A DNA stretch of 64,000 bases from a virus (taxonomy: Duplodnaviria > Heunggongvirae > Uroviricota > Caudoviricetes): IMG/VR virus record IMGVR_UViG_3300045988_154391; one strand, written 5' to 3'. The translations under genes were made by a program, and so were the position numbers. The notes below the pieces were generated by a model. The model searched no databases, was not told the DNA's origin, and saw only the letters and a program-made list of their open reading frames with translations. Of this stretch, positions 31,225 through 31,305 are shown in pieces (the first letter of the stretch is position 1; each line of letters begins with the position of its first letter).

Positions 31225-31305
31225 CAACGGTAAGGGTACTTCGTAGGGATTCGAACCCTCTGCCAAGCTCGGCGATCTCCGACGTCGCAAAATACCCTTA
31301 CCTGT
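31225..31305 (-). other. tRNA-like fragment with a perfect T-arm but no canonical acceptor stem
   Basis: GGGTTCGAATCCC flanked by a 10-bp inverted repeat (GGTAAGGGTA / TACCCTTACC); no cloverleaf could be built. Confidence 0.25.

Follow-up and report, generated by a model that had tools for sequence, protein, structure and literature searches.

A conserved stem with an exchangeable tRNA-like tip in the ban-operon leader of a P1-like phage-plasmid: a candidate RNase III-type processing hairpin

Introduction

What is a perfect tRNA T-arm doing beside a tRNA gene, enclosed by an inverted repeat, if no tRNA can be folded around it? The question is raised by a 64,000-nucleotide (nt) stretch of Caudoviricetes DNA (IMG/VR record IMGVR_UViG_3300045988_154391; hereafter the window, meaning this whole stretch), in which such an element lies on the minus strand next to a gene for tRNA-Thr. 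The window belongs to a P1-like (Punavirus) phage-plasmid, its positions 30400-32100 being 97–98% identical to P1, RCS47 and related records. A sequence-only reading of the DNA had offered a tRNA remnant, a tRNA-like structure or a processing signal as explanations. The analysis described below points, with somewhat better than even confidence on our part, to an RNase III-type processing hairpin with a tRNA-elbow-like cap.

Results

The hairpin and its stem

The T-arm sequence GGGTTCGAATCCC, quoted by the sequence-only reading in its minus-strand form, was recovered at 31246-31258 as a single occurrence in the window, where 0.07 matches with at most one mismatch were expected by chance and 7 of 100 shuffles gave at least one. 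The 10-bp inverted repeat noticed around it is real as well (GGTAAGGGTA at 31229-31238 and TACCCTTACC at 31293-31302); a repeat search lengthened it to 13 nt with 92% complementarity and found no more than 12 such repeats within 100 nt across the 64 kb, this one included. In the minus-strand RNA it forms the core of a 21-pair stem. The whole hairpin (87 nt, 31223-31309, minus strand), delimited by sequence, fold and the pair counts of an alignment described below (A1), starts 2 nt past the CCA of tRNA-Thr and consists of an outer stem, a tRNA-like apical module and the returning outer stem. Its 5' arm, CACAAC-A-GGUAAGGGUAUUUUG (31288-31309, minus strand; A1 pair counts), and its 3' arm, CGAAGUACCCUUACC-GUUGUG (31223-31243, minus strand; pair counts of A1 and of a second alignment, A2), make 15 inner pairs from G31302-C31229 to G31288-C31243, two U.G pairs included, and, past the bulged A31303, 6 outer pairs from C31309-G31223 to C31304-G31228. 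Enclosed by the stem are a D-arm-like hairpin, a short variable linker, the T-arm and one unpaired A. The 3' arm alone is also kept in P7, Ro157c2YLVW and Klebsiella phage-plasmids. Folding, one of the checks suggested by the sequence-only reading, gave -33.6 kcal/mol for the 81-nt segment as RNA (z = -3.44), a stability reached by none of 200 shuffles, and a weaker fold of -27.2 kcal/mol for the plus strand of the same 81 nt.

The transcribed strand does carry the stem structure, which is subject to selection. In alignment A1, made of 22 distinct sequences of the T-arm type with 20 stem pairs counted, 92.7% of the cells were paired and 10 of the 20 pairs had changes on both sides, which none of 500 shuffles reached; sliding the partner by 1–3 columns as a control left pairing at only 34–55%. 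Alignment A2 comprised 43 scaffold types, including three further window hairpins (A, C and D, see below) and the diverged copies L217, L219 and L206. Here 89% of the cells were paired, with double changes in 12 of 21 pairs and again none of 500 shuffles reaching this. The pattern used for retrieval fixed part of the arms, and the informative covariation is therefore that of the inner stem and of the diverged copies. U.G pairs are frequent in A2 (30/43 at one position); read from the opposite strand each would become an A.C mismatch, which assigns the fold to the transcribed, tRNA-bearing strand. The bulged A is conserved across the scaffold types, and columns 11/45 of A2 are non-Watson-Crick in 35 of the 43 sequences. 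Hybrid arms also exist, in which a GGG-type 5' arm combined with a CUC-type 3' arm gives G.U in 5 of the 22 A1 variants.

Comparison with known RNA classes

The failure of the sequence-only reading to build a cloverleaf was borne out by both programs applied. ARAGORN called no tRNA or tmRNA on the hairpin with its default settings, with the relaxed thresholds -ps70 to -ps90 or in the mitochondrial and tmRNA modes (-mt, -m), finding four tRNAs elsewhere in the window; in the covariance-model search, which had likewise been suggested, the hairpin had no tRNA, tmRNA or other Rfam match at gathering threshold and no tRNA-clan match even at E ≤ 10. A T-arm with the canonical UUCGAAU loop is present, and a four-arm cloverleaf scoring above the family threshold is absent. 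There is no anticodon arm (5 bp with a 7-nt loop), the distance from the D-like hairpin to the T-arm being 11–13 variable nt in 22/22 variants; nor is there a 7-bp acceptor stem with a CCA end, since the stem runs on for 21 pairs and no consistent NCCA follows a 7-bp segment (CCCU in P1, CUCU in phage BUCT554). The only Rfam tmRNA matches were weak and off the hairpin (31798-31966). The bacterial Y RNA-like family YrlA (RF02553) gave nothing on 31223-31309, its sole match (25.6 bits against a gathering score of 69) lying on the tRNA-Thr and tRNA-Asn genes, and a gathering-threshold Rfam scan of 14 related loci returned tRNAs only. Other weak Rfam matches in the region (mir-465, mir-1271, ALIL, Plastid RNAs, permuted tmRNA) were dismissed as generic long-hairpin or chance matches far below their gathering scores. 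What the hairpin does possess are two properties expected of an RNase III hairpin: double-stranded RNA of at least ~20 bp on the transcribed strand, and a stem homologous to a hairpin in the late leader of lambda.

The sequence-only reading would have been given up if the element had matched no covariance model and had not been conserved in related genomes. The first of these came true as far as known families are concerned, but the conservation turned out to be very strong.

A family of scaffold hairpins

Sequence comparison identifies the hairpin as one member of a widespread family of predicted RNA hairpins in temperate enterobacterial phages, built from a conserved ~20-bp stem and an exchangeable apical insert of ~30–70 nt. 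The consensus stem reads 5' CAC-AACAGGUAAGRGYAUU ... CYCUUWCCGUUGUG 3', with the A bulge and with either U.U or U-A at one position. The family pattern (5' arm CAC-AAC-A-GGUAAGRG, 3' arm CYCUUWCC-GUUGUG, bulged A, insert of 30–80 nt) is matched by the window hairpin, and its arms-only search of IMG/VR gave more than 120 contigs, representing at least 83 distinct hairpins and at least 37 unrelated insert types; among the matches listed, most came from phages of ~40 kb. The window hairpin is 100% identical in P1, where it falls inside the plp open reading frame (ORF) annotated on the opposite strand, in D6 and in SJ46, and is present in hundreds of P1-like plasmids. In P7, Ro157c2YLVW, pJN2-26 and two E. 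coli plasmids the arms are kept and the inserts are completely different; between the window and P7 the 90-nt flanks on both sides are 99% identical around an unalignable insert. Conversely, the same insert occurs, ~85% identical and with compensatory stem changes, in BUCT554, an unrelated Enterobacter Uetakevirus. As judged from these comparisons, the apical insert is swapped as a cassette.

In lambda, a scaffold copy at 44787-44862, which corresponds to +199 to +274 counted from the pR' start, starts ~6 nt past the T-run of tR' and lies ~320 nt before S. It shares with the window hairpin the arm sequences AACAGGTAAGRG ... CTTWCCGTTGTG and forms the longest helix that folding predicts for the late leader; the lambda GenBank records hold no RNase III feature at it. 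Some phages have the scaffold between Q (PF06530) or NinG on one side and the holin/lysozyme genes on the other, and epsilon15-like genomes have it between terminase and portal. The sites examined were always transcribed leaders or moron sites, and no neighbouring protein gene was common to the P1, lambda-like and epsilon15-like contexts examined, which together point to a host factor. In L105, L159 and L165 the last 3 nt of the hairpin are the first 3 nt of a tRNA-Arg gene. As an observation in its own right, the final GUG of the scaffold stem opens tRNA-Arg(tct) in these epsilon15-like genomes (7034-7180 in L105), and hairpin and tRNA maturation must therefore be coupled there.

The window holds four scaffold copies, all on the minus strand, of which the hairpin under study is B. 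Hairpin A (31668-31748), found as a repeat, lies upstream of the tRNA-Asn/tRNA-Thr pair and has an exact 16-mer, GCACAACAGGTAAGGG, in common with B. Hairpin C (30987-31086), found as an inverted repeat and included as a row of A2, is a diverged copy with 23-nt arms, GUUGAGAACAUUGG and CCAGUGUUCUCAAC, in which there are compensatory changes. Hairpin D (~30689-30802), another diverged repeat, starts 1 nt past the CCA of tRNA-Ser, and lambda has a homologue of its interior directly downstream of the lambda hairpin. An arms-only covariance model built from A2 (R1) matched hairpin A alone in the window (18.2 bits, E = 0.005); it missed hairpin B because long inserts are penalised, and was rejected as a family detector for that reason. 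A search of the K-12 Qin prophage found no scaffold copy, and a scan of species-representative genomes for the T-arm module gave one match only, in an Escherichia sp. P1-like contig (L224). Neither the hairpin sequence nor the P1 ban-leader RNAs turned up in the literature searched; the scaffold family is not in Rfam, and its cassette-like tips appear undescribed in that literature.

Small conserved hairpins accompany the scaffold, in the flanks of L004, L207, L208 and L213 and in the window. Upstream there is CCUCG-GAAGAGA-CGAGG or GCCUG-GAAAGA-CAGGC, represented in the window by CCCCGU...ACGGGG at 31752-31778 (minus strand), and downstream, after GUGAAU, GCGCA-GGCUGA-UGCGC. The functional unit may thus be larger than a single scaffold hairpin.

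The tRNA-like apical module

The tip of hairpin B, read directly from the sequence, begins with the D-arm-like hairpin CGA-CGUCGGAGA-UCG, with GG in a 9-nt loop (31273-31287, minus strand), and ends with the T-arm AGGG / UUCGAAU / CCCU with its canonical T-loop (31245-31259, minus strand). The T-arm was invariant in 22/22 variants, and the three pairs of the D-like stem were almost so, its C-G pair being broken in 1 of 22. Where an anticodon arm would be, there is a variable linker with a possible and weak 3-bp mini-hairpin (CCG/UGG; 31263-31272, minus strand), in which only one-sided changes were seen (A-U 11, G-U 8). The UCGGA of the D-like hairpin is complementary to the UUCGA of the T-loop, as picked up by RNAalifold. 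The P1-type insert forms, or could at any rate form, a mimic of the tRNA elbow, made of a GG-loop D-like hairpin and a T-arm and devoid of an anticodon arm. The tRNA-like structure proposed by the sequence-only reading is thereby supported for the apical module, but not for the rest of the hairpin. As a separate observation, the D-like loop (31276-31284, minus strand) shows GGA within the loop of a hairpin (GUCGGAGA) and so resembles, in general shape, a motif bound by CsrA.

The sequence of the module, made up of D-like hairpin and T-arm, is retained in seven or more stem lineages and is identical even where the stems are only ~60% alike (e.g. L217, L219, L206 and BUCT554). Some copies come after a tR'-like terminator, in the interval from Q to the lysis genes, and have no tRNA gene close by. 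Although 20 of the invariant positions were forced by the search pattern, ~14 unforced neighbouring positions are invariant too, and the same insert was recovered independently by the stem-only search. Stringent T-loop hairpins were found in 3 of 37 unrelated insert types, where 0.057 were expected and 2000 shuffles gave a maximum of 2. The T-arm insert is thus under constraint in its sequence, which argues for a functional cap: possible roles are that of a stable or marked excised fragment, of a platform recruiting T-loop-binding tRNA enzymes or of a decoy.

Position in the ban-operon leader and other features of the window

Judged from the P1 and P7 annotations, the hairpin is located in the tRNA-rich leader of the C1-controlled ban operon, on the minus strand of the window. 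The operon starts at the counterpart of the P1 C1 operator Oban and promoter Pban, a palindromic inverted repeat at 32116-32155 (no strand assigned), and the leader continues along the minus strand with the 'dicF-like' region, tRNA-Asn, tRNA-Thr, the hairpin, tRNA-Ser, an STnc100-like RNA, two ORFs, tRNA-Met and ban. The P7 annotation states that expression of the tRNAs is under control of the C1 operator. The 'dicF-like' region, placed on the minus strand between Oban/Pban and tRNA-Asn by the annotation order of P1 and P7, corresponds to 31975-32075; its homologue in Qin is the stretch upstream of DicF and not DicF itself, and at its end stands a terminator-like hairpin with a T-run, considered below. 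All four tRNA genes are on the minus strand. tRNA-Asn(gtt) (31389-31464) and tRNA-Thr(tgt) (31311-31386; 72.9 bits in Rfam), the latter directly upstream of the hairpin in the RNA, were called by ARAGORN and Rfam. tRNA-Ser(tga) (30803-30889) is without counterpart in P1 itself, and together with hairpin D it is found in the window, P7 and D6-like relatives. tRNA-Met(cat) (29392-29467), next to ban, was so called by ARAGORN, and its homologue in P1 is annotated as tRNA-Ile2 (ileX-like, lysidine-dependent). Among relatives the leader tRNAs (Asn, Thr, Tyr, Arg, Ser, Gly, Phe) differ widely in number and identity and are always placed between scaffold hairpins.

The STnc100-like RNA (30573-30693, minus strand) is a sub-threshold match to a prophage small RNA (sRNA) family, with 37.8 bits against a gathering score of 47. 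It begins at GGUGAAUGC, directly after the 3' arm of hairpin D, and the motif GGTGAATGCGGCTGAGCGCACGCGG also follows dicF in K-12 Qin (L225, ~17459-17485). STnc100 has been linked with PasD sRNAs in a 2026 preprint. Where P1 has tciA-tciB-tciC, the window encodes a 275-aa SPFH/Band 7 protein and a 78-aa ORF (29495-30539, minus strand).

In P1, plp (window 30963-31340, plus strand) and upl (~30771-30962, plus strand) are antisense to tRNA-Thr and hairpins B and C, and in the window tRNA-Ser takes the place of part of upl; plp and upl are probably not genes. The lambda 'orf-64' (44621-44815) spans 6S RNA and tR' and enters the 5' arm of the scaffold, and may be a spurious ORF like plp. Far from the leader, the window carries two C4 antisense RNA genes ~50 kb apart (features at 2110-2197, 2222-2299, 52835-52920 and 52989-53041, all minus strand), one adjoining an isrK-like RNA and the other having c4-a1b1 target sites, which suggests two immunity-I-type regions in one element. 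A sok antitoxin RNA at 49202-49376 (minus strand, 94.7 bits) implies a hok/sok-type addiction module.

Discussion

A putative processing site

In the explanation that we favour, host RNase III would cut the double-stranded stem, and the cuts would punctuate the long ban-operon precursor, separating its tRNA, sRNA and mRNA segments; cleavage downstream of tRNA-Thr would free the 3' trailer of this tRNA for exonucleolytic trimming. The analogy is with the RNase III stems flanking 16S and 23S rRNA and with the RNase III sites of the lambda late leader. Sites at which RNase III processes that leader in vivo have been reported (Daniels, Subbarao, Blattner & Lozeron 1988, Virology 167:568). The stem amounts to about two helical turns of double-stranded RNA and adjoins tRNAs at their 3' ends and, in some phages, at their 5' ends. 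Host RNase III is the most likely enzyme by analogy, because the scaffolds stand in transcribed leaders and occur in common hosts without a common neighbouring protein gene, and because of the length of the duplex and its abutment on tRNA ends. The processing signal considered by the sequence-only reading is accordingly the best supported of its options, with a long stem that abuts a tRNA 3' end and is homologous to the post-tR' hairpin of lambda, and with the cleavage itself inferred.

Several points weigh against this explanation. A terminator-like hairpin with a T-run at 31937-31959 (minus strand) stands between Pban and the tRNAs, so that either read-through or a second promoter would be needed; no sigma-70-like promoter closer to the hairpin than Pban was found, and the transcription route to the hairpin comes from annotation alone. 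RNase III has little sequence specificity, which leaves the tight conservation of the arms, the bulged A and the U.U position unexplained and suggests either frequent recombination or a sequence-specific partner. The T-stem does not vary and the D-like stem hardly does, so that covariation cannot confirm the interior fold, and an IMG/VR search for T-arm-type variants altered in the top pair of the T-stem found none, all 20 matches being unrelated and due to chance. RNAalifold favours a different interior, in which UCGGA pairs with UUCGA, albeit the same complementarity could equally well be a tRNA-like loop-loop contact; in single-sequence ensembles the probability of the T-stem ranged from 0.03 to 0.75 across the variants. 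Finally, the placement of the lambda late-leader RNase III sites in the hairpin at 44787-44862 is a presumption, backed by the predicted fold of the leader.

Alternative explanations

The scale of insert exchange raises the possibility that the arms are linkers for recombination at the DNA level, i.e. mosaic boundaries for the exchange of modules, and that the RNA hairpin is incidental. This would account for the window/P7 pair with its 99% identical flanks and unalignable insert, for at least 37 unrelated inserts between near-identical arms, for the hybrid GGG-type/CUC-type arms with G.U in 5/22 variants, for the extra hairpin module flanked by a duplicated 3' arm in vB_EcoM-813R1 and for the interior of hairpin D, which in lambda is sequence outside the hairpin. 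However, the diverged copies (hairpin C, L217, L219 and L206) keep their pairing by compensatory changes, the U.G pairs work on the transcribed strand only, and no inversion of inserts is seen between types despite the inverted-repeat arms; when insert inversion was examined as a candidate, the types were not reverse complements of one another and gave only three trivial k-mer overlaps. We consider it unlikely, and it is compatible with processing of the RNA rather than exclusive of it. Attention may instead be shifted to the cap, the hairpin then being the precursor of a stable free tRNA-elbow-like sRNA with a trans-acting role, perhaps that of a decoy for a host enzyme that binds tRNA or for a defence nuclease. 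The invariance of the insert across stem lineages, the enrichment of T-loop modules among the inserts and the location in a phage tRNA cluster speak for it; on the other side, no known RNA family matches, and other phages have completely different inserts at the same site, so that the cargo is dispensable for the scaffold. We regard such a product as rather improbable. A similarly low probability is given to a broader proposal, in which the stem is an RNase III-cleavable, pri-miRNA-like scaffold that releases exchangeable small RNAs of at least 37 types and the P1 cargo is a trans-acting mimic of the tRNA elbow directed at a host factor that recognises the T-loop or elbow. Candidate targets may include an enzyme that modifies tRNAs, RNase P or a defence nuclease directed at tRNAs, and the cassette-holding stem may be general to temperate enterobacterial phages of the lambda-, P22/epsilon15- and P1-like kinds.

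The conservation of the arms, of the bulged A and of the non-Watson-Crick position (35/43 unpaired at columns 11/45) beyond the needs of pairing, together with the small conserved hairpins flanking the scaffold, would suit an operator that a sequence-specific host or phage RNA-binding protein recognises, and that might control stability, translation or termination in place of being an RNase III site. No candidate protein gene is, however, common to the P1, lambda-like and epsilon15-like contexts, and the boxA-like UGCUCUUU of the 3' arm is missing from the P1 type, which has GUACCCUU; an operator of this sort seems improbable to us. A boxA/nut element as such was rejected, the boxA-like sequence of the lambdoid 3' arm being absent from the P1 type and buried in the stem. 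Very little weight is left for a decaying tRNA pseudogene or att-site remnant beside tRNA-Thr, which the perfect T-arm adjoining a tRNA gene had made attractive and which was the tRNA remnant of the sequence-only reading. No tRNA or tmRNA was called at any stringency, no covariance model matched and 0/22 variants have an anticodon arm; the 100% identity in P1, D6 and SJ46 and the ~85% identity with compensatory changes in the Enterobacter Uetakevirus are signs of purifying selection, not decay, and the module also stands after tR'-like terminators, from Q to the lysis genes of lambdoid phages, with no tRNA adjacent. P1 is not known to integrate at a tRNA. Least credible of all, to the point of being nearly dismissed, is that the hairpin belongs to the coding sequence of plp, a putative lipoprotein on the opposite strand in the P1 annotation: the frame is broken in the window by a TAA at 31206-31208 with the RNA features intact, and the ORF has a TTG start, is antisense over tRNA-Thr and crosses two conserved hairpins.

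Implications

If the RNase III-type processing hairpin is accepted, a P1 stretch annotated for twenty years as the 3' end of plp would be a structured RNA, and the lambda late-leader hairpin, a known or suspected RNase III site, would join a large unnamed and un-modelled RNA family whose scaffold is common to lambda-like, epsilon15-like and P1-like phages. A stem that hardly varies, topped by a wholesale-replaced tip, would make a testable system for the punctuation of phage tRNA/sRNA/mRNA precursors and for the shuffling of small RNA modules between phages, and temperate phages might, given the recurrence of T-loop modules, make RNAs that mimic tRNAs. An Rfam-style model of the scaffold would also keep ORFs such as plp, upl, lambda orf-64 and various 'hypothetical proteins' from being called spuriously in hundreds of records of phages and plasmids.

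Comparison with known systems

Integron attC sites resemble the scaffold in their imperfect inverted repeats, extrahelical bases, variable centre of 30–70 nt and cassette-like behaviour, and the CACAAC...GTTGTG ends of the scaffold recall RYYYAAC...GTTRRRY. In contrast to attC, the arms (G)CACAAC / GTTGTG(A/G) deviate at the Y/R positions, the U.G pairs indicate folding of RNA and not of bottom-strand DNA, and the units separated by the scaffolds are tRNAs, sRNAs and leaders instead of promoterless ORF cassettes. Identity with attC was rejected, as the core consensus RYYYAAC/GTTRRRY is not present and no integrase occurs among the neighbours examined.

Among tRNA-like RNAs, the bacterial Y RNA-like RNAs (YrlA) reportedly described by Chen et al. 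are similar in having a long basal stem made by the 5' and 3' ends and a tRNA-like T-arm/D-arm module without an anticodon, and in occurring also in phages. They differ in a permuted order, with the T-arm first and a closed acceptor-like hairpin, and in a helix that binds Ro/Rsr; RF02553 has no match on the window hairpin. The 3' end of MALAT1 (mascRNA) and the T4 'species 1/2' RNAs (rnaC, rnaD) are tRNA-like processing signals or stable RNAs and share with the hairpin a non-decoding tRNA-like fold that is co-processed inside a longer transcript or tRNA cluster. They are, however, substrates of RNase P/Z with acceptor-like ends, while the window hairpin has a 21-pair stem and no encoded CCA-type end.

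The RNase III stems of 16S and 23S rRNA and of the T7 early region (R1.1 etc.) are likewise about two turns of double-stranded RNA with small irregularities, placed between polycistronic units, and hairpins A and B bracket the tRNA-Asn/tRNA-Thr pair as RNase III sites do between the units of a precursor. RNase III is also said, by Pragai and Apirion, to be involved in the processing of the T4 tRNA cluster. Unlike the rRNA and T7 sites, those of the window are local hairpins with arms conserved across phages and a swappable tip, and their cleavage is inferred. A further system is the lambda late-leader hairpin at 44787-44862: its insert is unrelated and lacks a T-arm, and it serves a Q-dependent late operon where the window hairpin stands in the ban-operon tRNA cluster of a P1-like plasmid-prophage, but the two have in common the arm sequences, the bulged A and the orientation within a transcribed leader.

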